Shown here: positions 1,367-55,426 of the stretch, piece by piece
How the letters are laid out: every line of letters begins with the position of its first letter
Position numbering within the stretch: position 1 is the stretch's first letter
IMG/VR virus record: IMGVR_UViG_3300045988_163275
Span: 32,001 to 96,000 of that record
Origin: a virus
Lineage: Duplodnaviria > Heunggongvirae > Uroviricota > Caudoviricetes
DNA length: 64,000 nucleotides
Strand: one strand, 5' to 3'
The notes under the pieces: model-generated
Seen by the model: only the letters and a program-made list of their open reading frames with translations
The model's database searches: none
What the model was told of the DNA's origin: nothing
Position numbers and translations under genes: made by a program

Positions 1367-1654
1367 TTAGTGGAGCAGACCGATGTCGATGGTATCCCCT
1401 GAATCATCCACACGGATCATCAGCATGGCGAAGGCGTTTAGTGGATAGCTTGCGTGCCATTCAGGGAAGCGGTCATCTCGCATGAAGTCGGCAATGTCGT
1501 AAACGCAGCCCTCAAAGTGGAAGAATCGCGTGCTTACCTGCTCGTCATATTCCACATGATCCATTTCTTGCTGTTCTGTTTCCGGCAAGTCCAGCCATGA
1601 TTCAAGGAATACATTTTGTGCTTTAGGGGTAATGGTGAAATCAGTCATGAGCAT
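1367..1654 (-). CDS. hypothetical small acidic protein (95 aa)
   Basis: track ORF 1367..1780 begins with TTG and covers motif A; first ATG with GAGGAT SD at 1652-1654 (MLMTDFTITPK...). Confidence 0.45.
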   Translation of the reverse strand: MLMTDFTITPKAQNVFLESWLDLPETEQQEMDHVEYDEQVSTRFFHFEGCVYDIADFMRDDRFPEWHASYPLNAFAMLMIRVDDSGDTIDIGLLH

Positions 1655-1667
1655 ATCCTCACTGCGT

Positions 1668-1700
1668 AAACATATTGTTTTCTTGTTGGTGTAATTATCG
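1668..1700 (-). promoter_or_regulatory. leader motif A copy
   Basis: CATATTGTTTTCTTGTTGGTGTAATTATC 14 nt upstream of ATG at 1654. Confidence 0.5.
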
Positions 1701-1810
1701 CAGTGTAGATAAGGCATAAAAGACGTTAATACAGGCTGAATACACAAGAAAGGTTCTGGAAGTTGATAGCCAGGTTTCAAACTAACCTTCGGTTATTAAA
1801 AGTCATTTAA

Positions 1811-1830
1811 GACCACCAATGCTGGTGGCC
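1811..1830 (-). terminator. stem-loop containing Chi octamer GCTGGTGG
   Basis: GACCACCA-ATGC-TGGTGGCC hairpin 3' of small ORF 1838..1981. Confidence 0.35.
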
Positions 1831-1837
1831 TTAATAA

Positions 1838-1981
1838 TTATCGCCCGATTACGCTAAGGATCTTTTCCTCAACTGATTTGTTGTTGCGACTAAACTGCCT
1901 TGCGTATCTTATGACAGAAGAGGCGTTTCGCTTTCTGACCATCTCGGCTCTCTCCTTCAGGCGTTTCTTGAAATCGCCCAT
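1838..1981 (-). CDS. hypothetical small basic protein (47 aa)
   Basis: ATG at 1979-1981, K/R-rich; not in ORF track (<60 aa); hand-translated. Confidence 0.25.
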   Translation of the reverse strand: MGDFKKRLKERAEMVRKRNASSVIRYARQFSRNNKSVEEKILSVIGR

Positions 1982-1983
1982 AT

Positions 1984-2358
1984 TTACCACCAGGCGCAGA
2001 AGGTCAGTCTATTATTGTGAAAGTCGTGGTTCTTAATCAGATCTTCCACAATCTCTTTCAACTCCCCCACATCATGCCAGTAACCTTCATCGTACTCCTG
2101 ACTGCCGAAGAAAAAACCTTCCTGGGTAGGCAAGTACTCTTCGCAATTACTTTCGTTTATGTGCATCAAATGAGCCTTCAGAAAACAAATGTCATTCATC
2201 GTTAATTCTAAAAGCTCACAATTTTCGACTTCACCTACGTTGCGCTCCATCCACCCAACGAGCGCATTGAACTTACGGAAGTAAGCAACCTGCTTTCTGG
2301 ATGCCTCGTTATTCAGATCGTTTTTTGGCTGCGTCTCGATGTAGATATCAAGCCCCAT
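1984..2358 (-). CDS. hypothetical protein
   Basis: track ORF 1984..2400 starts with GTG; internal ATG at 2356-2358 has AAGGAA SD (MGLDIYIETQ...); alternative ATG at 2392-2394. Confidence 0.45.
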   Translation of the reverse strand: MGLDIYIETQPKNDLNNEASRKQVAYFRKFNALVGWMERNVGEVENCELLELTMNDICFLKAHLMHINESNCEEYLPTQEGFFFGSQEYDEGYWHDVGELKEIVEDLIKNHDFHNNRLTFCAWW

Positions 2359-2416
2359 GATGGTTTCCTTATTAAGTTGCTTCAGTGAAATCATTTTCAC
2401 AAATCAGATAAGGCAG

Positions 2417-2440
2417 AAAACAAATTGTTATCGGGCATAA
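2417..2440 (-). promoter_or_regulatory. leader motif A copy (degenerate)
   Basis: GAAAACAAATTGTTATCGGGCATAAG upstream of 1984..2400. Confidence 0.35.
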
Positions 2441-2475
2441 GAAAATGGCGCGGGGTACGCGCCATTCAAAGAGGA

Positions 2476-2871
2476 TTAAGCGAATACGCTTTCAGGGACA
2501 ATGGTGTCGATCTTTTCGCCGGAGATTATTCGCAGACCGTGTTGTCCCATCCAGGTACTATTGGTATTTAAACTCGATGTATAAACCGCATCGACCTTTT
2601 TCATCAAATTTTCAAACAACGTCTGATCCGCGCCACGGAAATGAGTTTCCAGTTTTATCAGTAAAGGGTCAGAAGCATTACTGATGCTTTGGTAACGCAC
2701 CGAATATTTCCCCTTTGTCGCCTCGCCGGTGCGAGTTAAGGTACTGGTGTGAACTTCTTCGCCGGAGGCATTATCGCGTAGCACAATTGTAATTTTTGCA
2801 ACTTTGTCTCCATTTTCCGTCTCTGATGCATAATACATATCCAGGGTCAGATTTTCGCGTTTAACGGTCAT
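2476..2871 (-). CDS. hypothetical protein (131 aa)
   Basis: ATG at 2869-2871 with AAGGAGAG SD 5 nt upstream. Confidence 0.55.
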   Translation of the reverse strand: MTVKRENLTLDMYYASETENGDKVAKITIVLRDNASGEEVHTSTLTRTGEATKGKYSVRYQSISNASDPLLIKLETHFRGADQTLFENLMKKVDAVYTSSLNTNSTWMGQHGLRIISGEKIDTIVPESVFA

Positions 2872-2908
2872 TTCACTCTCCTTAGTGTTTAATTTTTAAT
2901 TTTATTAT

Positions 2909-2927
2909 CATAAGTAAGTACTTACAA
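2909..2927. promoter_or_regulatory. palindromic operator-like motif B copy (TAAGTAAGTACTTAC)
   Basis: palindrome core TAAGTACTTA, 38 nt upstream of ATG 2871. Confidence 0.5.
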
Positions 2928-2935
2928 TACAAAAA

Positions 2936-2962
2936 AGCCCCGAAGGATTGGCGGGGCTGTCG
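2936..2962 (-). terminator. rho-independent terminator
   Basis: minus strand GCCCCG-loop-CGGGGC followed by TTTTTT, just 3' of stop of 2993..3304. Confidence 0.6.
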
Positions 2963-2992
2963 TACATTCGACTAACTACTGCTTGCACATGT

Positions 2993-3304
2993 TTAAGCTA
3001 CCGCCTGAACAGACGCTCGTTGGATCTCTTGTTGGGCGACACGGTTGGCTTCCATCAGCGCCAGTTCAAGCTGGTCCTCTGGCCACATTTTCTGGACCGA
3101 CATCCACCCTCTTCCACGCTGGCGACGAACTACCATCACATAGCGCGTAAAATTGCCCGCGTCGAAGGTAATGGCTTTTTCACGAAACAGACGGATAGAA
3201 GTCCCATTCGCTACGATATCCAGCAATGTGAGATGCCCCATTAAGGTTGGTTTTTCTTTTCTATCCTGGCCTTCAGCAAGACCCAGCACCAATGAAGTAT
3301 TCAT
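2993..3304 (-). CDS. hypothetical protein (103 aa)
   Basis: ATG at 3302-3304 with GGAG SD; track ORF extends to 3334 over motif A. Confidence 0.5.
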   Translation of the reverse strand: MNTSLVLGLAEGQDRKEKPTLMGHLTLLDIVANGTSIRLFREKAITFDAGNFTRYVMVVRRQRGRGWMSVQKMWPEDQLELALMEANRVAQQEIQRASVQAVA

Positions 3305-3314
3305 CACCACTCCG

Positions 3315-3350
3315 TAAACAAATTGTTTTCTCAATGGCGTAAATAATACC
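3315..3350 (-). promoter_or_regulatory. leader motif A copy
   Basis: AAACAAATTGTTTTCTCAATGGCGTAAATAATAC 11 nt upstream of ATG 3304. Confidence 0.5.
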
Positions 3351-3464
3351 AGTGTAAAAACGGCTACAAAGCATATTGCTCAGGCACATGAATTATCTAA
3401 AGGTGGTTCTGCCCTGCGGCTACAGAGAAGTTAAGCCAGCAGGCGGTGCTGGCTTTGGTTGGGC

Positions 3465-3794
3465 TTACGCGAATAACTCAAGGAATTCCTGCACGTCCCA
3501 ATGCTGGACAAGGTGAAGATAGAGCTTAGAAATCACGTCATTCTCGCTATCGCATGTGAAGTAGTACTTCTGGCTGCGGTTGTATGTGTCCACACAAAAT
3601 TCGCTCATATCCATAAAGTCAGCATCTTCACCCATGTCGCAAATAATCAAAGCAGGAGCATCATCACGAGTCATCAGCTCAAGCACCCAGCGCGAATTGA
3701 TCAGCGTGGAAGACCAACCTTCTAACTCATAAAACTGGTCAAACTCTTTTTGAGTCATTTTCTTGATTTGGTTGATGTCGATATTTGCAAACAT
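3465..3794 (-). CDS. hypothetical protein (109 aa)
   Basis: ATG at 3792-3794 with AAGGAT SD; track ORF extends to 3860. Confidence 0.5.
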   Translation of the reverse strand: MFANIDINQIKKMTQKEFDQFYELEGWSSTLINSRWVLELMTRDDAPALIICDMGEDADFMDMSEFCVDTYNRSQKYYFTCDSENDVISKLYLHLVQHWDVQEFLELFA

Positions 3795-3806
3795 AAAGCA
3801 ATCCTT

Positions 3807-3840
3807 AAACATGTTGTTTTCTGAATTGCGTAAACAATAC
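3807..3840 (-). promoter_or_regulatory. leader motif A copy
   Basis: AAACATGTTGTTTTCTGAATTGCGTAAACAATAC upstream of 3794. Confidence 0.5.
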
Positions 3841-3933
3841 CAGTAAGAAAACGGCCACAAAGTATATCGTTACGGTGCTGCGCTGCCCCGGAGGTTAATA
3901 GCGACAAAAGCCACCGTGCTGGTGGTCTCACTC

Positions 3934-7739: not shown

Positions 7740-8438
7740 TTACGGAACAGCAGTAATCAGATCGCAAATGCCTGTTTTAGTTAAATCACTATTTAGCTTC
7801 TGAAAATTGGCATTCAGCATTGCGGTATGTATTCGATTCTCAAGTTCAAAGAAGAGATCGATCTTGCCCTCTTTGGCTGCCACCTTCTTCCAAATATTCA
7901 CCTGGTCATCTGCGATACGACTTGCGCAGGTGAACAAGAACGAACTCCCTCTGGGAAGGGATGTCGTGCTGTAGTATTCACCGTCAACTTCAATATACTT
8001 AGCTCGGAATGACTCCAGAGTTAGCTTTTTACCGCTCTCAGCCTGCTTTGTGTCTGCCTTGCTTGTCTTTTCCTGAACTTCAGGCTGTTTCTGCACAGGC
8101 TTTGGTGTCTCATTGACCACCGCAGTGCTGGCCGAACCATCCAAACTCTTGAGGCCATTAATTTGGATTAGATAAGCCAACTCCAGAGTCTTATCACCAG
8201 TGAGTTTTCCACGCATACTTACCCATTGACGCTGAACCGTCTTTAAGGCGTCTGCGTCCCCCGGGTTTGCTTTGAGTGCGTTGGAATAGGTAGAGCTAAG
8301 TTGTTCGTCTAATTTTGACAGGCGTTCGTTATCGCAGATTTTGTGTTCGATTTCTGCCGAAGCCTTTTGGCAGTCAAAGCTGGCTGCAAATACAGCCGGC
8401 GATGCCACCAACAATGATGCCAGTAGGATATTTTTCAT
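7740..8438 (-). CDS. secreted protein with LprI/DUF1311-like N-terminal domain
   Basis: signal peptide MKNILLASLLVASPAVFA; FDCQKASAEIEHKICDNERLSKLDEQL pattern; ATG 8436-8438 with GGAG SD (track ORF starts at GTG 8444). Confidence 0.6.
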   Translation of the reverse strand: MKNILLASLLVASPAVFAASFDCQKASAEIEHKICDNERLSKLDEQLSSTYSNALKANPGDADALKTVQRQWVSMRGKLTGDKTLELAYLIQINGLKSLDGSASTAVVNETPKPVQKQPEVQEKTSKADTKQAESGKKLTLESFRAKYIEVDGEYYSTTSLPRGSSFLFTCASRIADDQVNIWKKVAAKEGKIDLFFELENRIHTAMLNANFQKLNSDLTKTGICDLITAVP

Positions 8439-8476
8439 ATTCACTCCATAAATATAAAAGCGCCTGACTATAGCAC

Positions 8477-9705: not shown

Positions 9706-9728
9706 GATTAGGTAAGTATTTACCTCTC
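9706..9728. promoter_or_regulatory. palindromic motif B copy
   Basis: GATTAGGTAAGTATTTACCTCTC between genes. Confidence 0.5.
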
Positions 9729-11412
9729 ATTTAACGCGTTTAAAAACGTATACGCTGACAGTAATCCCGGTGTCTTCAAACATGTTAGTAAACGACTTCC
9801 CTTTGGCATAAACGTAATTATCCAGCGTCATCCAGTTTAGAATTGGCGCGTCGCCCGGCAGCACTGCTACCAGACGCCCACCGACTTTCAGATGTCCCAG
9901 CGCGGCCAACGTGTGCTCTCTGTGACGGCCAAGAGAGTAGGGCGGGTTCATGACGATTTTGTCGAACTGATAACCTGCGTTGTCCTCAGACCACTTCATG
10001 AAGTCGCAGCAGACCGTATTTGTGTACCCCTTGCCAAGCAGGATATCAGCGAAGAGAGGTGCGACTTCTATGCAGGTAACGTCTTCCGGATTGGCGTCGA
10101 TGCAGGCCAGCAGATCTCCGCGCCCGGCTTCAGGCTCCAGCAGCTTCTCACCTGGCTTCAGCTCGATGGCTCTGGCAACGTACTCCGCTATCAAACGCGG
10201 GGTAGGGTAGAACTGGTGTGATTTTGTATCCGGTATTAAGCCGGTGGCCACAATCGTATTGAGCGTATGGCCGATCTCATACGGGAACTGCCAGTGCTTG
10301 TTCTCCTGCACGCCGCCAATAAAGCTCAGTGTACGCTCCAGCTCTTCCACCTGTGACTTCTGAAGACCGGAATCAGAGAAGTACCATACGCGTTTGTCAT
10401 TGCCAGATCGCCCGTCGCGAAGCGCAGTACGCACCGGCTCGGAGATCGTCTTCTGGATTAACCCGAACTGTTTTGGTGCCCGTGTTTTGGGCGCAGTACG
10501 ACATGGAGCCGGGATTGCAGCGGGCATACTGTAAGCCAGCACCTCATTCAGCTTCCAGGCTACGTCAGGATGTATTTCAAAGTGAACGTTGCCGTTCTTA
10601 AACATCTTCACACGCATCAGGTTTCCGTCGACATTCATCCAGTCGCCGGTCTGGCAGTCATTTGCTCGATACGCAGCTGACAGCATCTCGGCCGTGCGGT
10701 TGATGGTGATAAATTCTTTGTGTGCAAAGAAATGCAACATGACGCGCAGGTCGTCTATGTAATCCTCTTTCCGGTAGTTAACGCTGACGCTGTCCCGCCA
10801 GAAATCGGAAATGCAGTCGGCGATGATCAGACGCTCGCTGAAGCCGTTCGTCTTATTGGTCTTGTGAGCAGGACTCAACGCCTTAAACAAGCCATACACG
10901 CGCTCAGAGAGATATTTGTGCCTGTCATTCAGCAAATTAAGCATCGTTGGTATGACCGTTTCTGCTTTGAACTCAGGTACACCAACGAACTCTTTAACCT
11001 TCATTTGATAGCCAGTTCTGTCAGTCTTGATCGTTTCCTGCTTGCCCTCGATAAACTGTTCACGCCACTCGTCGCGGCGGGATGCTGGCATGATCAGCAG
11101 AACGTTGGTCATATCCGTGACCTTCTTCCAGTACTCGGCCCAGATATTTTGTTTCACCCATTCCAGGTCGACTTTGTCCAGCCAGGTTCTGTTAAAGCGT
11201 GTGCGCTCGTCGTCCGGCCGGTGGTTAAGTCGCAGTAGACGGTTAATCATGTTGTGGCGTTCGTCGCCATAAACGAAGTCGTGAACCTTATTCATGAACG
11301 CAATCTCTTTCTCGCATTCGGCCACAATTTCGTGGATAACATTCATTTCCTGCCGGTAGTCAATACCGGTGTCTGGAGTGATAGAGTCAATGATGGAAAG
11401 GGCTGTATTCAT
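9727..11412 (-). CDS. putative amino-methyltransferase (likely DNA N6-adenine) with large N-terminal domain of unknown function
   Basis: C-terminal FYPTP ... LEPEAGRGDLL ... VMNPPYS motifs (AdoMet motif I then NPPY); ATG 11410-11412 (track ORF starts TTG 11430). Confidence 0.55.
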   Translation of the reverse strand: MNTALSIIDSITPDTGIDYRQEMNVIHEIVAECEKEIAFMNKVHDFVYGDERHNMINRLLRLNHRPDDERTRFNRTWLDKVDLEWVKQNIWAEYWKKVTDMTNVLLIMPASRRDEWREQFIEGKQETIKTDRTGYQMKVKEFVGVPEFKAETVIPTMLNLLNDRHKYLSERVYGLFKALSPAHKTNKTNGFSERLIIADCISDFWRDSVSVNYRKEDYIDDLRVMLHFFAHKEFITINRTAEMLSAAYRANDCQTGDWMNVDGNLMRVKMFKNGNVHFEIHPDVAWKLNEVLAYSMPAAIPAPCRTAPKTRAPKQFGLIQKTISEPVRTALRDGRSGNDKRVWYFSDSGLQKSQVEELERTLSFIGGVQENKHWQFPYEIGHTLNTIVATGLIPDTKSHQFYPTPRLIAEYVARAIELKPGEKLLEPEAGRGDLLACIDANPEDVTCIEVAPLFADILLGKGYTNTVCCDFMKWSEDNAGYQFDKIVMNPPYSLGRHREHTLAALGHLKVGGRLVAVLPGDAPILNWMTLDNYVYAKGKSFTNMFEDTGITVSVYVFKRVK

Positions 11413-11423
11413 GATTGCACCAT

Positions 11424-11456
11424 TAAACAAATTGTTTTCTTATTGGTGTTATTTTC
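11424..11456 (-). promoter_or_regulatory. leader motif A copy
   Basis: TAAACAAATTGTTTTCTTATTGGTGTTATTTTCTC upstream of 11412. Confidence 0.5.
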
Positions 11457-11513
11457 TCAAAGCTAAAAAGGCGTAAAAGCAGCATTCACAGGCGTTGCAG
11501 CTGATTTAAGACG

Positions 11514-11536
11514 TAAAAAGGGGGCTTTCGTCCCCT
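11514..11536 (-). terminator. rho-independent terminator
   Basis: minus strand GGGGACGAAAGCCCCC followed by TTTTT, 3' of stop of 11553..12125. Confidence 0.6.
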
Positions 11537-12333: not shown

Positions 12334-13293
12334 ATGTTTGGTAATCTTTTCAAAACGGAAGAAACTAAGGCCCGGGAGGGCTTGGAGTCTCATTATCAGA
12401 AAGTCATGAGCTTCGTTGCTGAAAATGATCTACATGAAGCATGGGAAAAAACACGCAATATCATTTTTCGAAATATGGAAGTTAGAAGCTACATCACGCA
12501 AAACGGCGCGTTCGATCGTAACGATTTTTACTATAAGTCAGCCAAAGAGAAGCTTATTCAAAGCGCCTTCACTTCATACCTACTCATAAAAGTTTTACCT
12601 CAGTTCTATGAAATGCATCTCACCACTTTGAAAAGAAAAGAAAAAACACTCACAACACAGGATGAATACGGGGTCTGGAACTTTGACAAGTGGTTTGATG
12701 AAGTAGACTACTTTTATGACAAGGTAGTAAAAGAGAAAGTTTACGATTGGATCGAAGAGAACACAGGCCGGCTCAACAACCTTTGGTTGGCAGAGTCGGA
12801 GGACAAGAATGCCTGGGGGCGGCCAGTTTACTTTAAATTCCAGTTGCCTGAACAATTTGATCGCTGCGCAATAAATCACATTATGACGGTGGTAGACAAT
12901 ACACCAGAACCTGAATTACCTGAGTACACTTCGCTACTGACCGGGCACGAATATGAGCATTTTGTCGCTGGGGAGTTTATGAAGTATGGATCCGACACCC
13001 AAGTAACTAAGGGCAGCGGCGATCACGGTCTGGATATCCTTGTAACCTATAGAGAAGTTCGAATGGCTGTTCAGTGCAAACACTACCAGTCTAAAGTAGG
13101 CAACAAAGCTATTCAGGAAGCATTTTCCGCGAAACAGTTCTACGATTGCTCCCTCGCAATAGTAGTCAGCAACAGCGAGTTTACCCCTCACGCCAGACAA
13201 GCAGCCAAAAAACTGGACGTTTATCTGTATCACCATGAAGATATACACTTAATAATAGACGCCATTAATAATTGGCTGGATGCGCCGGAGTGA
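12334..13293 (+). CDS. Mrr-like (PD-(D/E)xK) restriction endonuclease-domain protein, N-terminal domain unknown
   Basis: C-terminal GSGDHGLDILV ... VQCKHYQSKVGNKAIQEAF ... IVVSNSEFTPHARQAAKKLDVYL resembles Mrr catalytic domain; plus-strand, AT-rich, amid minus-strand genes. Confidence 0.6.
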   Translation: MFGNLFKTEETKAREGLESHYQKVMSFVAENDLHEAWEKTRNIIFRNMEVRSYITQNGAFDRNDFYYKSAKEKLIQSAFTSYLLIKVLPQFYEMHLTTLKRKEKTLTTQDEYGVWNFDKWFDEVDYFYDKVVKEKVYDWIEENTGRLNNLWLAESEDKNAWGRPVYFKFQLPEQFDRCAINHIMTVVDNTPEPELPEYTSLLTGHEYEHFVAGEFMKYGSDTQVTKGSGDHGLDILVTYREVRMAVQCKHYQSKVGNKAIQEAFSAKQFYDCSLAIVVSNSEFTPHARQAAKKLDVYLYHHEDIHLIIDAINNWLDAPE

Positions 13294-15800: not shown

Positions 15801-16394
15801 TTACGCTGCCTTTTTACGTGGTCTCTTCTTCCTGACAACATTGGCAGGGTCATAACCACCCAGCTTTTTCATCACCGCCAGCGGTATCTTGCTGATGGTG
15901 TGCCCAGCTTCCTGACAGTAGCCACGGAAGATAAGCAACATGCTGCCACCAGGGTTGATGTTCACCTCCACCAGCCCAAGTTCAACATCCGGCTCAACGA
16001 ACGCCACGCGGCCGCCAGACAAGATGACGGTTTCGTTGGCGCATTCAGCCGCACGCTCGTACCACTGCGTATCGAGGGATTGTGGTATCAGCATGACCGT
16101 CGTCACTCCACGCGCCTGCTCGCGAATGGCTGCGTCTATCCAGGGGGTGATTTTGGAGTAGGGCGGGTTAAGGAACGCCACAGTGCCAGGTTCTCCCCAA
16201 CTGCACTTGAGCGCATCACGCTCAACACCGATAAAGTTCGGCAGGAGAGCATTATCTTTGTTGCAGGCGACGTCCACATCGAACTTTACGCCTATGTAAC
16301 GTTGGATGGCGACAAACAACCACTGCGGTGTGCGCCAAAGGTCGCGAAGAGAGGCATCACGCTCTCGCTTTTTGATTTTTTCGGCTGCGATCAT
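15801..16394 (-). CDS. dam: phage-type DNA N6-adenine methyltransferase (Dam family)
   Basis: DLWRTPQWLF ... DVACNKDNALLPNF ... FLNPPYS signature; ATG 16392-16394. Confidence 0.8.
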   Translation of the reverse strand: MIAAEKIKKRERDASLRDLWRTPQWLFVAIQRYIGVKFDVDVACNKDNALLPNFIGVERDALKCSWGEPGTVAFLNPPYSKITPWIDAAIREQARGVTTVMLIPQSLDTQWYERAAECANETVILSGGRVAFVEPDVELGLVEVNINPGGSMLLIFRGYCQEAGHTISKIPLAVMKKLGGYDPANVVRKKRPRKKAA

Positions 16395-29625: not shown

Positions 29626-30681
29626 ATGAGCGTAAACGACAATAAAAACATTGCGATAAGCGAAGCATTTTCCGAAACAGACAAAAAGACCGGCGAAGTT
29701 GTTACGTTAGTTCCTAACACCAACAACACAGTTCAGCCTGTTGCTCTGATGCGTCTTGGTCTCTTCGTTCCGACGCTGAAATCGACATCCAGGGGTAGAA
29801 AGGGGCAAATGGTCTCTATGGACGCCTCCGCTGAACTCAAACAGCTGTCTCTGGCCAAAGCCGAAGGGTACGAGGATATAAGGATTGCTGGTCTTCGTCT
29901 TGATATGGATAACGATTTCAAAACATGGGTGGGCATCATCCACGCGTTCGCCAAGCACAAGGTTGTTGGTGACACCGTCACGTTGCCGTTCGTCGAGTTC
30001 GTCAGACTTTGTGGCATACCAACAGCCAGATCGTCCGCGAAGTTACGTAAGCGCCTGGACAGCTCTCTAAGTCGTATCGCCACAAACACCATCTCATTCC
30101 GCAGCAAAGGCTCTGAAGAGTATTACGTTACGCACCTTGTGCAGACGGCAAAGTACAGTACCAAGAATGACACGGTCGAACTGAAGGCCGATCCTAAGAT
30201 TTTCGAACTTTACCAGTTCGACAAAAAGGTGCTTTTGCAACTTCGGGCCATCAACGAACTCTCCAGAAAGGAATCCGCGCAGGCGCTCTACACCTTCATT
30301 GAAAGTTTGCCACCAGACCCGGCGCCAATCTCATTGGCTCGCTTACGCGCCAGACTTAACTTAACCAGCCGCACCATTACCCAGAATGCGACAGTCAGGA
30401 AGGCGATGGAGCAACTGCGAGAGATCGGCTATCTCGATTACACTGAAGTGAAACGCGGCAGCTCGGTCTACTTCGTCATCCACTATAGACGGCCGAAGTT
30501 ACGTTCGGCACTGCCGCCATCTATGGCCACGCCTGAAGATCCAGAAGATATCTTGCCAGGTGATGATCCGGAGGACATTATCGATGTTGCTCCTGAAGAA
30601 AAAGACGGGGAAATGGTCATGTTGAGCAAGGAAGAACTGGCGATTCTCGAAGAGCTGCGCAAGGCAAAGGCTCGCAAATAG
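29626..30681 (+). CDS. repA: plasmid replication initiator RepA (iteron-binding)
   Basis: flanked on both sides by iterons; [61 protein letters not shown] blocks resemble P1-type RepA as I recall it. Confidence 0.8.
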
Positions 30682-32325: not shown

Positions 32326-32777
32326 AATGGGCGCTATAAGGCGCACAATCATTGTGTTCAGGCTGGTGGAAAGAACTTCTCCAGCGTGTGGTTGATAGCC
32401 TTATCAATGTGCATCAGGTGGCCAAATTCAGTGTGCCACTTCACTCGAACCCCAAGACCGGCAATGGAATCGCTTTGTAGAGCTAGAGTTAGTGCCGCAT
32501 CCTCGTATTGAGCACAGCGAAGCGATTGAGCTAGACTATGGCATGACGGGGGGCGCTCTAAAGGTTGAGATTAGAGCGGCCTCGGCAGGCTACTTACTCA
32601 GACAATGGAATGTGGATTGTTCTACCAACGCCACACTCCAAGATGGTGGAGCTCAATTGTACTTAAAGAACAGAGCAACACTTTATGGAGTTAAAAACAT
32701 CATGCTAGCTCCAGGGATTGAAAAAGAACTTGGTAACTAATGCACAAAAACGAACTTGGCGCAGAGAATAAATTTTG

Positions 32778-35700
32778 ATGAAAATAATCGATAACCTTAA
32801 CAACCTATTAGGTGACGAGCTTCAACAGACGCTGACACCGAATACAAAGTTAAAGATTGCTGCGTCTTGCTTTTCTATTTATGCGTATGAGGCTCTCAAA
32901 AAGGAGTTAGCGAAGATAGACTCACTTGAGTTCATCTTCACATCACCTACTTTTGTCGCAGATGAAGTTACCGATAAATTCAAAAAAGAAAAACGAGAGT
33001 TCTTTATTCCCAAAGCAGGGCGTGAACGCAGCCTTTACGGAACTGACTTTGAAATACAGTTAAAGAACAAGCTCACTCAAAAGGCGATCGCCAAAGAGTG
33101 TGCAAACTGGATCAGAAAGAAAGCGACATTCAAATCAAACAAAACTGATTCTCCAATGCAGTCGTTTGTTGTGACGGAAGCACCTAGACAGCAAACAGAG
33201 ACAATGAGTGCAGTTTTTGCTCCGGTTAGCGGGTTTACGGCGGTTGATCTAGGGTATCAGCGAGGAAATGCTATTTCGAATTTTGTGCAAAAAATCGATG
33301 AGCCAAATTTCACAGCCCAGTACTTACAGTTATTCGACCAAATTTGGAAAGACCCTGCGAAGCTTCAAGATGTTACTAAAACAATTTGCGAGCATATAGA
33401 GTCTGTCTACCAGGAAAACTCGCCTGAGAAAGTCTATTTCATTATTTTGTATAACATTTTTAATGAGTTCCTTGATGATATTACAGAGGATGTATTACCA
33501 AATGATCGAACCGGCTATCAGGACACCTTGATTTGGAACAAGTTATTCAACTACCAAAAAGATGCCGCGACTGGGATTATCAATAAGTTAGAGACCTATA
33601 ACGGCTGCATTCTGGCTGATAGTGTTGGTCTTGGTAAAACATTTACAGCGTTAGCTGTCATCAAGTATTACGAGCTCAGGAACAAGTCCGTACTTCTACT
33701 GTGTCCGAAAAAATTGGCAGATAACTGGCTCAACTTTAATCGAAACTTAAAGACAAATATTTTTGCTAAAGACCGTTTTAGTTACGATGTTTTGTGTCAC
33801 ACAGATTTGAGTCGAACCTCTGGCGAATCCTTCGGTACTCCGTTGAATAGAATAAACTGGGGTAACTATGACTTGGTCGTCATTGATGAGTCGCATAACT
33901 TTAGAAATAACGATGCAGTGAAAGATCGAGAAACTCGATATCAGAAACTGATGAATAAAGTGATTCGCGCTGGCGTAAAAACCAAGGTGCTGATGCTATC
34001 AGCGACACCAGTGAATAACAGATTTACTGACCTGAGAAACCAGCTCGCGTTAGCTTATGAAGGCGAGTCGAGCAATCTCACAAAGCATCTTAAAACCACA
34101 AAAAGCGTAGAACAGATCTTCAACCAAGCACAAGCCGCATTTAACGCTTGGTCCAAACTCGACCCAGAGACGCGAACAGCTAAAGCCATACTCGATGCCT
34201 TAGATTTTGACTTTTTTGAACTGCTTGATAGCGTCACTATCGCTCGCTCACGAAAGCACATCACAACTTTCTACGACACAACAGATATTGGCCATTTCCC
34301 TGAACGTAACAAGCCAATCTCGTTTCATTGTCCGCTTACTACTCGTTCGGATGTAGTAAGCCTGAATGAGATCTTTGAACAGCTTAAGCTACTCAAACTA
34401 TCTGTTTATGCGCCAGTGAGTTATATCCTCCCGAGTAGATTGAAGAAATATGAGGAGATGTATGACACGGAAGTTGAAGGCGGAAAAGGTAAGTTAAAGC
34501 AAAGCGACCGTGAAAAAAGTTTGGTTGCATTGATGACAACGAACCTCCTAAAGCGTCTTGAGAGCTCCGTATACTCGTTCAGAAGCACCTTGCAATCTCT
34601 CCATGATAACCATGTTCGTGTTCTAGGTATTATCGACGAATTCTATAAGCGAGACGGGCAAACCGAAGTGAGCAGTCTCGTTGAAGCGCTAGAGTCTATT
34701 GAAGCAGATGAAGACGATATGCCTTCTTATCACGATATGGAAATCGGTAACAAAATCAAAATTAAGCTAATGGATATGGATCTTCCATCCTGGCAGCAGG
34801 ATTTAGATGGCGATTTGGAGCTGATCAAAGGGTTACTAGATTCTGTTAGCAAAATTAAGCCAGAAGAAGATGCTAAGTTGCAGCATCTGAAATCACATAT
34901 TGCTGCAAAAATAAATAATCCGATAAATCCTGGAAACCGGAAAATCATCGTGTTCACGGCGTTTGCTGACACCGCTCAGTATCTGTACGAGCAGTTGTCA
35001 CCTGTGATGTTAAGCGAGCATAGAATCCATACTGCGATGATCACTGGTGGTGCCAGTTTACCTAAGACCACCTTAAAAACCGGACGAAAAGGTTACGACA
35101 CACAAGAAGTGCTCACCTTGTTTTCTCCAGTTTCCAAATCGAAAGCCAGTGTATTACCTGACGAACCCGCTGAAATCGATTTGTTGATTGCTACAGACTG
35201 TATCTCTGAAGGGCAGAACTTACAGGATTGCGATTACTTAATTAACTTTGATATTCATTGGAATCCAGTTCGGATTGTTCAGCGCTTTGGGCGTGTTGAC
35301 CGTATTGGCTCGGCGAATAAATGTATTCAGTTAGTTAACTACTGGCCTGATATATCGCTGGATGAGTACATCAACTTAAAAGAACGTGTTGAAAGTCGAA
35401 TGACGATTGTTGACGTAACAGCGACCGGTGATGACAACGTTCTAAGTTGTCAAGCGAATGATGTGTCGTACCGTAAAGAGCAGTTAAAGAAACTACAAGA
35501 AGAAGTCATCGAGCTTGAAGATTTAAAAACGGGGGTTTCTATCACCGATCTAGGTCTAAACGAATTTCGAATGGACCTGCTAAATCTAATGAAACTCTAC
35601 GGCGAACCAAGAAATGCACCAAGCGGCATGCATGCGGTGGTTGAGGCTAAGCCAGAATTAGGGTTATTGCCTGGCGTGGTGTTTGCGCTGAAAAACGTTA

Positions 35701-36110
35701 ATAACAGTATCGATAGAGATCTGCAAAACAGGCTCCACCCTTATTACCTTGTCTATGTATCGAATGAAGGGGACATCGTCGCTAATCATTTTGAGGTAAA
35801 GAGACTATTAGATTTAATCCGAAGTAGCTGTAAAGGTCAAACAGCACCGCTCAGTGAGATTTGTGCTTTATTTAATCGCTTAACGCAAGACGGTCGAGAT
35901 ATGCAGTGTTACTCTCACCTTCTAACAGATGCCATAAAAAGCATGGTTGAAGTTAAGGAAGAAAAAGATATTGATAGTTTGTTCAATGGTGGCGCTACCT
36001 CAGCTTTAGTGAATACATTTGCCGGGCTTGATGACTTTGAATTGCTGGCATTTATTGTGATCCAGCAAAAGCAGCTGATGGAAAACAGTGCCCAGGATGA
36101 GGTTAGCTAA
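32778..36110 (+). CDS. SNF2-family helicase with ~250-aa N-terminal domain of unknown function
   Basis: motif I ADSVGLGKTFTA, motif II LVVIDESHNFRN, motif III LMLSATPVNN, C-terminal helicase motifs ATDCISEGQNLQDCDYLINFDIHWNPVRIVQRFGRVDRIGS; 1110 aa; AT-rich. Confidence 0.85.
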   Translation: MKIIDNLNNLLGDELQQTLTPNTKLKIAASCFSIYAYEALKKELAKIDSLEFIFTSPTFVADEVTDKFKKEKREFFIPKAGRERSLYGTDFEIQLKNKLTQKAIAKECANWIRKKATFKSNKTDSPMQSFVVTEAPRQQTETMSAVFAPVSGFTAVDLGYQRGNAISNFVQKIDEPNFTAQYLQLFDQIWKDPAKLQDVTKTICEHIESVYQENSPEKVYFIILYNIFNEFLDDITEDVLPNDRTGYQDTLIWNKLFNYQKDAATGIINKLETYNGCILADSVGLGKTFTALAVIKYYELRNKSVLLLCPKKLADNWLNFNRNLKTNIFAKDRFSYDVLCHTDLSRTSGESFGTPLNRINWGNYDLVVIDESHNFRNNDAVKDRETRYQKLMNKVIRAGVKTKVLMLSATPVNNRFTDLRNQLALAYEGESSNLTKHLKTTKSVEQIFNQAQAAFNAWSKLDPETRTAKAILDALDFDFFELLDSVTIARSRKHITTFYDTTDIGHFPERNKPISFHCPLTTRSDVVSLNEIFEQLKLLKLSVYAPVSYILPSRLKKYEEMYDTEVEGGKGKLKQSDREKSLVALMTTNLLKRLESSVYSFRSTLQSLHDNHVRVLGIIDEFYKRDGQTEVSSLVEALESIEADEDDMPSYHDMEIGNKIKIKLMDMDLPSWQQDLDGDLELIKGLLDSVSKIKPEEDAKLQHLKSHIAAKINNPINPGNRKIIVFTAFADTAQYLYEQLSPVMLSEHRIHTAMITGGASLPKTTLKTGRKGYDTQEVLTLFSPVSKSKASVLPDEPAEIDLLIATDCISEGQNLQDCDYLINFDIHWNPVRIVQRFGRVDRIGSANKCIQLVNYWPDISLDEYINLKERVESRMTIVDVTATGDDNVLSCQANDVSYRKEQLKKLQEEVIELEDLKTGVSITDLGLNEFRMDLLNLMKLYGEPRNAPSGMHAVVEAKPELGLLPGVVFALKNVNNSIDRDLQNRLHPYYLVYVSNEGDIVANHFEVKRLLDLIRSSCKGQTAPLSEICALFNRLTQDGRDMQCYSHLLTDAIKSMVEVKEEKDIDSLFNGGATSALVNTFAGLDDFELLAFIVIQQKQLMENSAQDEVS

Positions 36111-36113
36111 TCT

Positions 36114-36800
36114 ATGTACTCACCTTGGATATTTCCTGACAAAGCAAAGTTCGGTCGAGTCGTGCCGAAGAACAAAATATACGAACACAGCGCGGCAAGC
36201 GCTGGATTGAAGTCACTTTTTGTAGAGCAAGTAGAGCAAATCCTTTGGGCTTACAAGCTATCGCCTAGCACGCTGAATATTCCTCAAACCAGTGAGGTCA
36301 GTGAAATACAGGTTTTCAGTGTGAAGCTTAAAGGTGACTCGATAGACGACAGCGTACTAAAAGCCATTGATTTGGCGATACCTTTTCCCATTCTATTTGA
36401 GGTATGGGAAGCTCGCGGTGAGCAAGGCCACTACGTTGCTTGCTATAAGCGTAAGGCAGAAAATGATCAGTCAAAATGGTTTTGTAGCCGCTATTTACGC
36501 TCAGAAACCTTCTATTCAAGTGATTCATTAGCAGTGACTTCAGAAGTTTTGGGGTTGCCTACCGCCATCGATATGGCGGAGCTGTATCAAAAGCTTCTTA
36601 CTCGCTTGTTACCCATACCCCAACGAGCCGCTGAGAGTATTGAAGAGGTCATTGAACGCTTGATGGCAATTCAGGCATTGGAAAAGCAAATCTCGCAATA
36701 TAAGAAGAAGGTTCATGCCGAGAAACAGTTTAACCGCAAGGTTGAGCTCAATAAGCAGTTAAAGAATTTAAGGTGCGAGCTTCAAGAGTTACTCGCATAA
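36114..36800 (+). CDS. 228-aa protein of unknown function, coiled-coil C-terminus, coupled to the helicase
   Basis: ATG 3 nt after helicase stop; C-terminal heptad-rich segment; no catalytic motif seen. Confidence 0.7.
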   Translation: MYSPWIFPDKAKFGRVVPKNKIYEHSAASAGLKSLFVEQVEQILWAYKLSPSTLNIPQTSEVSEIQVFSVKLKGDSIDDSVLKAIDLAIPFPILFEVWEARGEQGHYVACYKRKAENDQSKWFCSRYLRSETFYSSDSLAVTSEVLGLPTAIDMAELYQKLLTRLLPIPQRAAESIEEVIERLMAIQALEKQISQYKKKVHAEKQFNRKVELNKQLKNLRCELQELLA

Positions 36801-36873
36801 AGAATAAACAATTTCAATCAGTTAAATAGTGCCACATGCTTTTTATGCAAGGCATCACGCAAAAGGTGAACAC

Positions 36874-38796
36874 ATGGACAAATTAAAGATGCACAGCCCC
36901 GACATGACGCAGCAAAACATAGAGAAAATTCAGGCGTTGTTTCCGAACTGCGTGACGGAATCAAGAGGAGCTAACGGAGAGCTAAAGTTAGTCATTGATT
37001 TTGACCAACTTAAACAAGAGCTATCAAATTCAATCGTTGAAGGCCCGCAAGAGCGCTATCAGCTGAACTGGCCCGGTAAGCGAGAAGCACTACTAACAGC
37101 GAACGCACCTATTGCAAAAACATTAAGACCTTGTCGAGAAGAAAGTGTTAATTTTGATACCACAGAAAACCTCTTTATTGAAGGTGATAACCTTGATGCG
37201 CTAAAAATGTTGCAAGAAACCTATTTGGGCAAGGTTAAGGTGATTTATATAGATCCGCCCTATAATACGGGTAAGGATTTTATATACGAAGACGATTTTG
37301 CTGAAAATTCTGATGGGTTTTTGAAGCGGTCAAATCAAAAGGATGAAGAAGGCAATCGCCTTGTAGCCAATACCGATTCCAACGGTCGCTTTCACTCAGA
37401 CTGGTTGAGCATGATATTTTCGAGACTTAAACTTGCACGCAATATACTAAGTAGTGATGGAATTATCTTTATTAGTATAGATGAAAACGAGCTTGATAAC
37501 CTCTTGAAAATAGGAAAGGAAATATTTGGTGAAGAGAACCACATAACTACGTTTTGTTGGGAAAAAAAGAAGAAACCATCTTTTCTTAATAAAAATGTAG
37601 GTTCGAAATTCGAGTATATTGTCACCTTTTCAAAGAATCGTGATTACACAGGTGCATTTTCCATTGATCTTACAACTGAAGGTAAAAAGTACCCCCTGAA
37701 TAATGCAGGGAACTCACTCGGAAACCTTGTTTTTCCAGCAGGTTCGGTACGATTCAACTTGCCAGACCAGATTATAGAACCGCAAGATATGTCTGAGGGT
37801 AAAATAAAAACCAGGTTAATTAATAGGTTGGAAATAATTGGAGGTAAAAACGTTAATGAATTTATCCTTGAGGGTGAATGGAGATATTCTCAGAATAGAT
37901 TAAATGAAATTCTAGAAAATCGAGAAGAAATTATAATCAGCAAAGTTCCGTTTAGGCCAAATCATGTAAAAGCAGGAGGTGAGATAAAAAAAATGCACAA
38001 CCTCCTAAGTGTCGCTCATTATAAAGTTTCAACTAATGAGGATGCGGATGCCGAAAGTTCAGAGTTGATGGGGAATAAATACTTTGATTACACCAAGCCT
38101 TCAAATTTAATCAAACTATTAATCCAAGCAATAACTTATGACGATCAAGAATGTCTAGTATTAGATTTTTTTGCGGGTTCATCAACAACCGCCCATGCCG
38201 TGATGCAACTTAATGCAGAAGATGGCGGAAATCGAAAATTTATCATGGTTCAGTTGCCTGAAGAGTGTGATAAAAAATCAGAAGCCTTCAAAGCTGGCTA
38301 CAAAACAATTGCTGAGATATCAAAAGAACGCATCCGCCGTGCTGGTGCAAAAATATTAGAAGGGGAGTGCCACAAAGACTGGAATAAAGACGTTGGTTTC
38401 CGAGTGCTTAAAGTTGATACATCCAATATGGCCGATGTCTACTACTCGCCAGAGCAGGTTTCTCAGGGTTCGTTAGACTTATTGGTAGATAATATTAAAT
38501 CAGACCGCACTGATGAAGATTTACTTTTCCAGGTTCTACTTGATTGGGGCGTCGATTTAACCTTGCCAATTAGAAAAGAAACGATTCAAGGTAAATCGGT
38601 ATTCTTTGTCGATGATGATGCACTGGTGGCCTGTTTTGATCTGCGCATAAATGAAGCTTTGATTAAAGAGTTAGCCATAAAAGAACCTCTTCGCGTAGTG
38701 TTCCGTGATGACGGCTTTGAATCTGATGCAGTAAAAATCAATGCTGAGCAGATTTTCAAGCAAGTGTCGCCATATACTGAAGTTAAAGCGATTTAA
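36874..38796 (+). CDS. mod: Type III restriction-modification Mod subunit (beta-class N6-adenine methyltransferase)
   Basis: [13 protein letters not shown] ... [23 protein letters not shown] (motif IV) precedes [16 protein letters not shown] (motif I); ~640 aa; ATG with AAGGTG SD (track ORF starts GTG 36829). Confidence 0.85.
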
Positions 38797-38891
38797 GGGG
38801 GGAGCATGACAAATTTTACCGGATTAAAATTTGCACACAGCCTTGTCGCAGACAAGGTGTGCCCAAAGGGTTGCGTACAGGGAGGTGCGCA

Positions 38892-41800
38892 ATGAAACTT
38901 AAATTCAAAGTCCAGCCTTATCAAACTGTTGCCGTAGAGTCGGTTGTTGACTGCTTTGCGGGGCAACCTAATACCTCCGGTATAACCTACCGAATCGATC
39001 CTGGCATTGCCAAAGATAAATTTGGCAATGCTGGCTGGGATATGAGTGACCAGGATGGGTTTAAAAATGCTGAACTTGCGATCACTGAATCGCAGTTATT
39101 GCAAAATATCCATGGTGTTCAAAGTAGACAGAACCTCCCTGTTTCAGAAGCGTTAGCCAGCAATGCTAGCTCTAAGATTAATCTCGATGTTGAAATGGAA
39201 ACCGGTACAGGTAAGACATATTGCTACATCAAAACTATCTTTGAGATGAATAAACGCTATGGCTGGAGCAAATTTATTATCGTAGTGCCTAGCATTGCCA
39301 TTCGTGAAGGTGTTTACAAGTCGCTACAAATCACAGGTGAGCATTTTGCCCAGAATTACAACGGTAAAAAGGCACGGTTTTTCATCTATAACTCAAAACA
39401 ATTGCACCAGTTAGAGAGTTTTTCTTCTGACAGTGGCATCAATGTCATGATCATTAATATTCAAGCCTTTAATGCATCAGGAAAAGACAATCGACGTATT
39501 TATGAAGAGTTGGATGACTTCCAGTCTAGGCGTCCTATTGATGTTATTAGTGCAAACCGTCCAATCCTGATTTTGGATGAGCCGCAGAAGATGGAAGGTA
39601 AGAAGACATTAGATGCCTTAGCCAAATTCAAACCACTGATGGTACTTCGATATTCGGCCACGCATAAGACAACACATAATAAGGTGCATCGTCTGGATGC
39701 TCTTGACGCTTATAACAATAAGCTGGTTAAGAAAATTGCAGTTCGTGGTATCTCAGTAAAGGGTTTAGCGGGCACTACAGCCTATCTATATCTGGAATCC
39801 ATCGAAATCTCAAAAAAAATGCCAGTGGCTCGTATAGAGATCGAGGTTAAACAACAAAATGGCATCAAACGCATACCCAAGAAGGTCACTAAGGGCGATA
39901 ATCTTTTTGATCTTAGTAATGGTTTGGACCAGTACCGTGATTTTGTGGTTACTGATGTCAACGCGATTAACGACACAGTTGAATTCAAAAATGGCCATGT
40001 TTTAACCGCGGGCGATGCCACGGGAGACGTGACCGAAGAGACCATTCGCCGCATACAGATTCGCGAGACAATTAAAGCACACCTTGAAAAAGAAAAAATA
40101 CTTTTTAACCAGGGTATAAAGGTTCTCTCTCTCTTTTTTATTGACGAAGTCGCAAAGTATAGGGACTACTCTCAAGCCGATGAAAAAGGTGATTATGCTC
40201 GCGTTTTTGAAGAAGAGTATTCCTTGCTTGTACAGGAGTATCTTGATGAGTTGTCCCTTTTGCCAAGTGAGCAGACTGATGCCTATAAAGCCTATCTATC
40301 GGCCATTGAAGGCTCTAGAACGCATAATGGTTACTTCTCAATTGATAAGAAATCAAATCGTCTTCAGAACCCCGGCTTTAAAGTCCGTGGTGAAGATGCC
40401 GGGCTATCAGACGATGTAGATGCCTATGATTTGATTTTAAAAGATAAGGAAAAGTTACTTTCGTTTGAAGAGCCTACTCGATTTATCTTTTCACACTCGG
40501 CCTTGCGCGAGGGGTGGGATAATCCAAACGTATTTGTCATGTGTATGTTGAAACACAGCGACAATACTATCTCTCGTCGTCAAGAAGTTGGACGTGGTTT
40601 ACGTCTGGCCGTCAATAAACATGGTGACAGACAAGATCATCCGGCAACTGTGCATGAAATTAATGTCTTGTCGGTGATTGCAAGTGAAAGCTATAAAGAC
40701 TTTGTCACGAATCTGCAAAAAGAGATCAGCGAGTCTCTCTCAGCGAGACCTAGAAAAGCAGATGAAGCTTATTTTACGGGTAAGACAATTACAACAGCTG
40801 ATGGACCTGTAGAAGTAACACCTGTCATGGCTAAGCAAATTTATAAGTATTTGCTTAAAAATGATTATACCAATGACGTTGACGATTCAATTGCGCCATC
40901 ATTCCACCAGGCTAAGGCTAGTGGGCAGTTAGCGCCAATGCCTGCTGAGTTAGAGCCTTACCGCGAGCAAATATTGACCCTGATTGACGGTGTTTATAGT
41001 GAAGCGCAATTGCCAGGTGTTGGTGATGATCGTAAACCTAAAAACAATCCGTTGAATGCTAATTTTGATAAGAAAGAGTTTCAGGAGCTTTGGCACAAAA
41101 TCAATCGCAAAGCGGTTTATAAGGTTGATTTTGATTCGTCTGAGTTGATTAAAAATTGTATTCGGGTACTCAATAAAGAGCTTAAGGTAACGCCTCTTCA
41201 GTACACGATTCAAGATGGTGTTCAATTGGATGGCATTACCGACGAACAACTCAAAGCTGGACAAAGTTTCAAGGTGAAAAACACTGAGACTGAAACTCAT
41301 CAATCGAGCATTCATTCTGCTGTTCGTTATGACTTGGTTGGTAAGTTGGCTGAAAATTGTGTGCTGACTCGCAAAACAGTCGCCGAAATACTGATGGGTA
41401 TAGAACCTGTAGTATTTGCACAATTTAAGCAGAACCCTGAGCATTTTCTCGCTGAGGCTTCACGCCTTGTGAAAGAGCAAAAGGCATCTGTGATCATCGA
41501 GAAGCTATCATATGATCCAACGAACGAATCTTATGATGTTGATATATTCACGGCAGAGCAAAAAATCACTGATATGACAAAAGCCGTTAGTGGCGTTAAT
41601 AAGCATATTTATGATTATGTTGTCGTTGATTCACAAGGCATTGAACGGGACTTTGTTACCGAGCTTGATACAAGCAAAGAAGTCGTGGTTTATGCAAAAC
41701 TGCCTCGTGGTTTTCTGATACCGACGCCTGTTGGCGACTACAACCCTGATTGGGCGATTTCTTTCAAAGAAGGAAGTGTTAAACACATTTACTTTATTGC

Positions 41801-41969
41801 AGAGACTAAAGGAACGATGTCTTCGCTTGAATTGCGTGGCATAGAAGATCGCAAGATTGAATGTGCTAGGAAATTCTTTGAAAAAATTAATGCAGAGATA
41901 ACGAGTGAAAACGTCAAATATGATGTTGTAACGAGTTACTCGAAATTAATGGAAGTCATAAGCGGTTAG
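38892..41969 (+). CDS. res: Type III restriction enzyme Res subunit (helicase + PD-(D/E)xK nuclease)
   Basis: [23 protein letters not shown]-terminus, Walker [20 protein letters not shown]; C-terminal YNPDWAISF ... [10 protein letters not shown] nuclease motif; strong GGGAGGTG SD. Confidence 0.85.
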
Positions 41970-53072: not shown

Positions 53073-53131
53073 GTTTTTTCCTTACTGTTTGTCGTTTGTG
53101 GGGTATATCTTATAGAAATATATTAGGCTGT

Positions 53132-53150
53132 ATAGTAAGTAGTTACTTAT
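53132..53150. promoter_or_regulatory. palindromic motif B copy
   Basis: ATAGTAAGTAGTTACTTAT upstream of the AAA+ gene. Confidence 0.45.
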
Positions 53151-53167
53151 TTTTAAGGGTAAAGCTA

Positions 53168-55399: not shown

Positions 55400-55426
55400 T
55401 AGAATTCCCTTGTTGTTAAAACAATT

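Follow-up and report, generated by a model that had tools for sequence, protein, structure and literature searches.

The 64,000-nucleotide stretch analysed here (the window; positions 32,001 to 96,000 of the IMG/VR record IMGVR_UViG_3300045988_163275) contains a gene for a protein of 561 amino acids in which a region of the DUF4942 family is fused to a class I S-adenosylmethionine (SAM)-dependent methyltransferase. According to the SSU5 annotation, the gene is the orthologue of SSU5_095. The gene, the parts of its product and the motifs read from its translation are located as follows:

9727..11412, minus strand: complete coding sequence of the DUF4942-methyltransferase fusion, 561 amino acids and the stop codon
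11182..11412, minus strand: N-terminal helical lead-in (residues 1-77), with long helices at residues 19-48 and 52-62 in the AlphaFold2 prediction and low sequence conservation
10513..11181, minus strand: core of module A, the DUF4942 unit (residues 78-300), delimited by Pfam PF13708 and by hhalign against the stand-alone family
10228..10482, minus strand: small variable alpha/beta domain at the start of module B (residues 311-395), less conserved than any other folded part
9730..10227, minus strand: compact Rossmann-fold amino-methyltransferase domain (residues 396-561)
10198..10218, minus strand: HQFYPTP (residues 399-405), motif X-like helix cap ahead of motif I
10111..10140, minus strand: LEPEAGRGDL (residues 425-434), motif I, the SAM-binding loop
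9937..9948, minus strand: NPPY (residues 489-492), motif IV, the catalytic tetrapeptide

In the list of open reading frames (ORFs) the open frame spans 9727..11430 on the minus strand; it starts from a TTG at 11430, and its first ATG comes at 11412. The RefSeq relatives, which are 98% identical, are annotated in the ATG form (9727-11412, 561 amino acids). The 561-residue protein gives a full-length match to phrog_6263, described as 'DNA methyltransferase' in PHROG (E 4e-296), and has 304 homologues at E<=1e-3 in a word-indexed search; moreover, a profile search covering 1.84 billion cluster representatives (clusters at 50% identity) returned 741 of them at E<=1e-30. Given these homologues and profile-search clusters, the frame is not a chance ORF and 9727-11412 is a genuine gene. 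The best 150 of the 741 profile matches are 494-701 amino acids long and all span nearly the whole profile, with the same full-length architecture; they come from phages, prophages and further mobile elements of Proteobacteria, and no extra Pfam domain was found in the longer family members.

Three independent lines of comparison indicate that the protein is composed of two evolutionary modules, A (DUF4942) and B (the small variable domain together with the Rossmann methyltransferase). Firstly, residues 78-300 align with residues 55-247, nearly the entire length, of a stand-alone DUF4942 protein (hhalign 99.9%, E 5e-31). Secondly, residues 329-560 align in a single block with the central part of phrog_9133, a profile of 1,259 positions from another phage protein family (E 3e-46). 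Thirdly, the allele P0044 has an E. coli-type module A, with 93-95% identity to the window protein up to residue 310; from residue 311 (position 10482 of the window) onwards it shares 99-100% identity with the Klebsiella allele P0081, a stretch in which the window protein reaches only 49-53%. As the identity of P0044 switches at residue 311, a recombination breakpoint lies exactly at the junction between the modules, at the N-terminal edge of the small domain; P0044 is a natural chimera, which suggests that the catalytic or recognition half has been exchanged between phage-plasmid lineages. From a structural perspective, AlphaFold2 gave a predicted local distance difference test score (pLDDT) of 83.6 for the whole protein and, for residues 1-395 with a 64-sequence alignment, a pLDDT of 89.1 and a predicted template modelling score (pTM) of 0.81. 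The predicted secondary structure falls into four parts: a helical lead-in (residues ~20-120), an alpha/beta core (~124-300), a small alpha/beta domain (~318-394) and the Rossmann domain (396-561).

An earlier note on this DNA had described the product of 9727-11412 as an NPPY-motif methyltransferase, and the translation bears this out, HQFYPTP, EPEAGRGDL and NPPY being all intact. Residues Q400, Y402, P403 and T404 are among the best-conserved columns of a 165-sequence alignment, and HQFYPTP was aligned with the 'ETPPEV' of TaqI by HMMER; E426, P427, A429, G430 and G432 are invariant or near-invariant, and N489, P490 and P491 are invariant in 20 sequences and, again, among the best-conserved columns in 165. 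The conserved set of the catalytic module (Q400-x-Y-P-T, E426-P-x-A-G-x-G, E449, D470-F471, N489-P-P-(Y/F), H500, P519 and F545) comprises the residues expected for an active amino-methyltransferase. Indeed, the hallmarks of the N6-adenine/N4-cytosine type are found together, namely the Rossmann fold, motif I, an acidic motif II and a motif IV of the form (D/N/S)PP(Y/F). About 70 residues follow NPPY and complete the Rossmann sheet, and the additional sequence of the protein lies on the N-terminal side. A PADLOC scan over the catalytic residues returned mad2 as well as Type II or orphan methyltransferase matches.

The explanation that we consider probable, with some reserve, is that the gene encodes an orphan SAM-dependent N6-adenine DNA methyltransferase protecting the DNA of the element that carries it. 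The existence of the gene, the motifs and catalytic fold of its product, the two modules, the lack of a partner gene and the occurrence in mobile elements are shown by the analysis; DNA as the substrate, the N6 of adenine as the target atom, the protective role, any sequence specificity and, in what follows, its source and the contribution of DUF4942 are what we infer. The C-terminal 166 residues would constitute a minimal Rossmann catalytic domain, with the motif order X-I-II-III-IV and the NPPY loop, in which the conserved Phe545 would receive the flipped adenine. Since no large target-recognition domain follows the catalytic domain, recognition would have to precede it, and could be provided by the small variable domain (residues 311-395), by the DUF4942 module (residues ~20-310) or by both. 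The enzyme would methylate the DNA of the element and, incidentally, that of the host too, and newly replicated or packaged genomes would thereby resist some restriction enzymes in the next host.

Several observations weigh against this explanation. The Pfam profile N6_Mtase (PF02384) scores 16 bits, below its threshold of 20.4 (E 0.008), and over residues 400-439 only. When 64 family members were assigned by Pfam, 44 matched MTS, a family of the rRNA (ribosomal RNA) or protein type, 12 matched N6_Mtase (E<=0.01) and five RrnaAD, so that the classification of the catalytic domain from sequence is ambiguous. The single best structural match is METTL5, which produces N6-methyladenosine (m6A) in rRNA, and the BLASTP comparison with P1 DarB is not significant (E 0.12, motifs X-I only). 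As regards the N-terminal half, the DUF4942 core (residues 161-200 and 261-300) reaches 2.8-3.06 bits per column in the 165-sequence alignment, against 2.6-2.9 for the catalytic core, and is the best-conserved part of the protein; a conservation equal to or above that of the catalytic core would be unlike a hypervariable recognition domain. DUF4942 also occurs with no methyltransferase nearby, so its job may be unrelated to methylation. Finally, no experiment or functional study on any family member was found in the literature, where DUF4942 is mentioned in passing only.

Part of these observations would be accounted for if the substrate were not DNA at all, but an adenine or guanine amino group of host rRNA or transfer RNA, or a protein glutamine, whose methylation would alter translation or evade an RNA-targeting defence. 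The MTS and RrnaAD assignments (44 and 5 of 64) speak for such a substrate and the similarity to METTL5 allows it, as does the comparison of the family profile with PDB sequences, in which the best E-value (0.0014) belongs to an archaeal KsgA/Dim1; the very high conservation of the non-catalytic module would also suit one conserved cellular target. METTL5 and PH1948, which act with a TRMT112 partner or stand-alone in eukaryotic or archaeal ribosome biogenesis, are, however, only 17-20% identical to the present domain and have no DUF4942, and in the structural comparison DNA adenine methyltransferases score nearly as high as METTL5, with greater sequence identity. Moreover, the family sits in replication modules of phages, prophages and integrative and conjugative elements, next to DNA methylases of Dam type or C5 type; lineages have swapped divergent catalytic-module alleles, as is typical of specificity turnover in DNA methyltransferases, and related catalytic modules are found in virion-associated giant proteins thought to act on DNA (PMC5512222). 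A substrate other than DNA is thus considered rather improbable.

Compared with the gamma-class N6-adenine enzymes (M.TaqI, M.BseCI, CamA and the HsdM subunits of EcoKI and EcoR124), the present protein has no recognition domain after the core, where the classic M.TaqI-like enzymes carry it, and no HsdS; it has instead ~395 unrelated N-terminal residues, and the Pfam cut-offs of N6_Mtase and Eco57I are not reached. A further comparison concerns the fused restriction-modification enzymes of Type IIG/IIL, to which the protein would belong if its N-terminal region were a nuclease. The succession of nuclease, connector and gamma-type methyltransferase would recall MmeI or Eco57I, DUF4942 has conserved His and Asp residues, and the label 'RE endonuclease' is attached to homologues in some phage records of GenBank, although it is automated and unsupported. 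Neither the N-terminal PD-(D/E)xK nuclease nor the C-terminal recognition domain of Type IIG/IIL enzymes is present, the protein ending ~70 residues after NPPY; no nuclease signature was found, and the stand-alone DUF4942 proteins would be unprotected nucleases, which makes this explanation highly improbable.

The favoured explanation, a DNA adenine methyltransferase, finds its nearest parallels among phage proteins, and M.TaqI is among the PDB sequences matched by the family profile. The nearest phage relatives of the catalytic domain beyond its own family are modules in giant phage proteins, some of them annotated as structural. Examples are phrog profiles with 1,400-3,900 positions and, encoded beside the lysis genes of a Pseudomonas phage, a PLxRFG protein of 3,782 residues. 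The methyltransferase modules of the polyvalent proteins have mostly been assigned to EcoKI/TaqI-like DNA adenine methylases and linked to counter-restriction (Iyer et al. 2017, PMC5512222). With these proteins, of which P1 DarB is the archetype (PMC5512222), the present one has in common the kinship of its catalytic module to giant phage proteins, the mobile-element setting and the presumed counter-restriction. It differs from them in that no SF2/SNF2 helicase is fused to it, the protein ending at residue 561 where a DarB-like methylase-helicase dyad would have its helicase, and in that nothing points to packaging into the virion, the gene being located in the replication arm. An identity as a DarB-like protein was considered and rejected for want of significant BLASTP similarity, and the claim of kinship is limited to modules of other giant phage proteins. 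The protein also resembles the orphan phage methyltransferases (the Dam-type enzymes of PF05869/TIGR01712, P1 Dmt and T4 Dam) in that it stands alone, is phage- or plasmid-encoded and presumably serves self-protection, although it belongs to another methyltransferase family and has another architecture. The specificities of the Dam-type enzymes, P1 Dmt and T4 Dam are for GATC or are relaxed.

The N-terminal ~400 residues had been described in the earlier note as free of any recognisable motif. A domain search corrects this, because residues 140-295 (10528-10995) match Pfam DUF4942 (PF13708; E 1e-20, 74.5 bits against a gathering threshold of 25), though the family is itself uncharacterised; the match is found in all 64 of the 64 aligned family members. 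In the same 64 sequences the polar residues R164, S180, H183, T185, N186, D221, H277 and N289 are invariant, and R223, D262, H281 and R305 near-invariant, a pattern that would fit a conserved site of binding or catalysis. The lowest conservation in the 165-sequence alignment is seen at residues 121-140, 201-220, 241-260, 321-360 and 521-540; if any part of the protein sets a sequence specificity, the small variable domain and the 521-540 loop of module B may be better candidates.

Stand-alone DUF4942 proteins are 250-290 amino acids long, as exemplified by WMM36541 of the Pseudoalteromonas phage PS_L5 (Pfam E 2e-46), and are encoded in phage early regions and genomic islands. In all 48 of the 48 homologues detected, DUF4942 is the sole Pfam domain recorded. 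These proteins are homologous to residues 78-300 and have the signatures (H/Y)-K-T-N, D-L-x-R and N-G-N-x-H in common with the fused family, but lack the second His (H281) that is near-invariant in the latter, and no methyltransferase is fused or adjacent to them. The possibility of a split methyltransferase beside the stand-alone genes was rejected, as no methyltransferase motifs were found in the flanking ORFs. One stand-alone gene was observed in SPI-3 of Salmonella Infantis SARB27 (locus L090, 5707-6591), directly upstream of rhuM and split by a frameshift in this strain. When the DUF4942 segment by itself was the query of a word-indexed search, nothing but fragments of the same gene was retrieved.

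The existence of these stand-alone proteins is a motive for considering the fusion as a 'mini-polyvalent' protein with two effectors. DUF4942 would then be an early-phase effector in its own right, which might, for example, inhibit or sense a host defence or bind DNA ends or single-stranded DNA, and it would be joined to a methyltransferase with a counter-defence activity of its own. Complete DUF4942 units do occur in phage early regions and islands with no adjacent methyltransferase, and the retention of the polar invariants (S/H/T/N 180-186, D221, R223, H277 and N289) in both fused and stand-alone forms suggests that DUF4942 has a function of its own; modules A and B recombine independently, and the catalytic module is found in giant multi-domain phage proteins too. 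On the other hand, the fusion is very stable, the 150 best cluster representatives having the same full-length architecture, which argues for functional coupling. Module A matches no known anti-defence family in PADLOC, its sole match in PHROG is the unannotated phrog_38825 (E 1e-6), and no solved structural relative pointing to an activity was found for the confidently predicted fold of the DUF4942 half. Two independent effectors are therefore regarded as possible but unlikely. To a similar degree, it is conceivable, if doubtful, that DUF4942 is a new fold with an activity of its own, directed at incoming DNA or at a protein of host defence, and that the fused enzymes form an unrecognised class whose targeting depends on this module. 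In that case, S-x-x-H-x-T-N, D-L-R and N-G-N-x-H could build a catalytic or ligand-binding site, and targeting might occur, for example, via DNA structure or a protein partner instead of a sequence motif.

The status of orphan that the favoured explanation, the self-protecting DNA methyltransferase, attributes to the enzyme was assessed from the distribution and the neighbours of the family. A scan of GTDB genomes gave 167 loci, on chromosomes and plasmids, mainly of gamma- and beta-proteobacteria and with at least one alpha-proteobacterium; among the phage records that contain the N-terminal region are those of phages of Aeromonas, Pseudomonas, Vibrio and Marinomonas. SSU5 carries the gene, as do plasmids and phages related to it from several genera of enterobacteria. 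When the ORFs of 81 loci were clustered, no neighbour family occurred in more than nine loci and no conserved nuclease partner was found. The contexts sampled are phage or prophage replication-recombination modules and other mobile-element regions, with neighbours such as DnaT-/DnaC-like loaders, YqaJ, a lambda-type integrase, UvrD, DnaG, NAD ligase, terminase, DUF932 and transfer-region-like genes; no restriction endonuclease was among them, and the gene does not form part of a restriction-modification system. A nuclease-domain gene close by in the window, the Mrr_cat gene at 12334-13293, was rejected as a partner, its slot being occupied by the anti-repressor gene ant in SSU5 and no related nuclease recurring near the homologues in the 81 loci. 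With no recurrent neighbour, and with an anti-repressor in the corresponding slot of SSU5, the methyltransferase is solitary. In a prophage-like region of the Serratia aquatilis chromosome (locus L013, 7824-12013), a homologue lies downstream of DnaT-/DnaC-like loader genes, and a C5-cytosine DNA methylase of 757 amino acids starts ~220 bp downstream of it, after an ORF of 98 amino acids, so that orphan methylases are again stacked.

As for the element, a 3.2-kb query containing the gene and its two neighbours matched 561 plasmid records, 548 of which are non-mobilizable by MOB-suite typing; their hosts are Escherichia, Klebsiella, Enterobacter and Salmonella, and the best matches (98% identity) are E. 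coli plasmids. The SSU5 phage is 93% identical to this query over 92% of its length, and the order of the genes around the DUF4942-methyltransferase is that of SSU5_081-SSU5_101. The element is thus a phage-plasmid of the SSU5 supergroup, by nucleotide identity and synteny with SSU5/pHCM2-like replicons. Of 5,426 E. coli strains with complete genomes, 242 (4.5%) have the gene, in every case on a plasmid. Further products of the window are a Pol III alpha subunit, a gp32-like single-stranded DNA-binding protein, a 5'-3' exonuclease, SbcCD-like proteins, thymidylate synthase, a DnaQ-like exonuclease, RNase H, a Rep3 initiator (29626-30681), an integrase-family recombinase and a ligase, and the ORF at 19241-19717 occupies the slot called dihydrofolate reductase in related plasmids, an assignment by position only. 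By this gene content, the window is the arm of an SSU5-like phage-plasmid that is devoted to replication and DNA metabolism.

The earlier note had further counted three amino-methyltransferases in the 64 kb and proposed layered self-protection or anti-restriction. The count is correct, the two other enzymes and the partner of one of them being encoded as follows:

15801..16394, minus strand: phage Dam-type N6-adenine methyltransferase of 197 amino acids (PF05869 and TIGR01712), a separate protein belonging to the context of the gene under study
36829..38796, plus strand: Type III Mod (PF01555, N6_N4_Mtase; PADLOC MTase_III, E 8e-226), within an island at 32775-41969
38859..41969: Type III Res, adjacent to Mod (PADLOC REase_III, E 0; Pfam ResIII and RE_endonuc)

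The Dam-type assignment derives from Pfam Dam PF05869 (E 4e-37, 127.8 bits against a cut-off of 28.1) and from TIGR01712 phage_N6A_met (111.8 bits against 97.05), and SSU5 has such a gene (SSU5_088) alongside SSU5_095. No further methyltransferase was found with Pfam among ~45 other ORFs, which include most, not all, of those of at least 150 amino acids. The DUF4942 fusion and the Dam-type gene are both solitary and both lie in the leftward replication/DNA-metabolism block, and these two enzymes, which are shared with SSU5, would fit the self-protection or anti-restriction proposed in the earlier note, which is thus partly supported. The proposal does not hold for the Mod, which is half of a cargo restriction-modification system: Mod and the adjoining Res make 36829-41969 a complete Type III system, as judged from their profile matches. 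At a coverage of at least 80%, the island is present in 15 plasmids of PLSDB against 159 for the 3.2-kb query, and because it is rare and contains a complete system, it is accessory defence or addiction cargo rather than anti-restriction. The three methyltransferases are therefore not three layers of one strategy. The island (plus strand), which comes shortly after the Rep3 initiator gene, consists of four genes with a GC content of 0.40-0.43, against ~0.49 elsewhere, encoding a SNF2-type helicase of 1,111 amino acids (PADLOC 'HKD+Snf2' C3a139, E 4e-122), a DUF4391 protein and the Type III Mod and Res.

Two candidate signals were located upstream of the DUF4942-methyltransferase gene:

11431..11460, minus strand: sigma-70-like promoter candidate directly 5' of the start codon, TTGAGA-18-AACAAT, with 9/12 consensus matches
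11519..11536, minus strand: terminator-like GC-rich hairpin, GGGGACGAAAGCCCCC followed by a run of T, after the preceding (upstream) gene

The promoter and terminator scan gave these one candidate each, with site counts in the region at or below those expected from shuffled sequences, which makes them weak evidence, and the hairpin and the candidate site together offer only a hint that the methyltransferase gene might open a separate transcript.

Other genes of the window deserve mention. The Mrr_cat gene (12334-13293, plus strand) lies between two methyltransferase genes, on the strand opposite to them and two genes from the DUF4942-methyltransferase, and encodes a protein of 319 amino acids with a C-terminal Mrr_cat nuclease domain after 200 N-terminal residues that received no assignment. 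Its slot contains ant in SSU5, and IS421 stands alongside in a close plasmid, which marks it as a variable hotspot. E. coli Mrr targets methylated DNA, and the coexistence of the nuclease with the element's own methylases would be puzzling if it did the same. A predicted LprI-family (lysozyme-inhibitor-like) protein, with an N-terminal hydrophobic stretch recognised by eye, is encoded at 7740-8444 (minus strand) and has SSU5_101 as its SSU5 counterpart. At 42271-44610 (minus strand) there is a RecA homologue, 779 amino acids in total, split by an intein with a LAGLIDADG homing-endonuclease domain, and at 51837-55468 (minus strand) a CobT-like VWA protein (766 amino acids) and an AAA_5 CobS/MoxR-like ATPase (411 amino acids) adjoin the Pol III alpha gene.

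The gene itself is already catalogued, as "DUF4942 domain-containing protein", as "class I SAM-dependent methyltransferase" and as phrog_6263, and it is ordinary for phages and plasmids to carry several orphan methylases. The searchable literature on DUF4942, on the methylases of SSU5/pHCM2 and on phage-plasmid methylomes contained nothing on function; absent from it are also DUF4942 as an autonomous module whose predicted fold is unmatched and the recombination at a module boundary among SSU5-like alleles. SSU5-group phage-plasmids are common in Enterobacterales and spread resistance genes, and the way in which they cross restriction barriers is largely unstudied. While the general view of how phages and plasmids use methylation is left unchanged, the protein is one of a very large family of methyltransferases of mobile elements whose non-catalytic half also circulates alone, and the assignment of a methylation motif to it, or of the absence of one, would annotate hundreds of gene clusters and provide a first functional handle on DUF4942.

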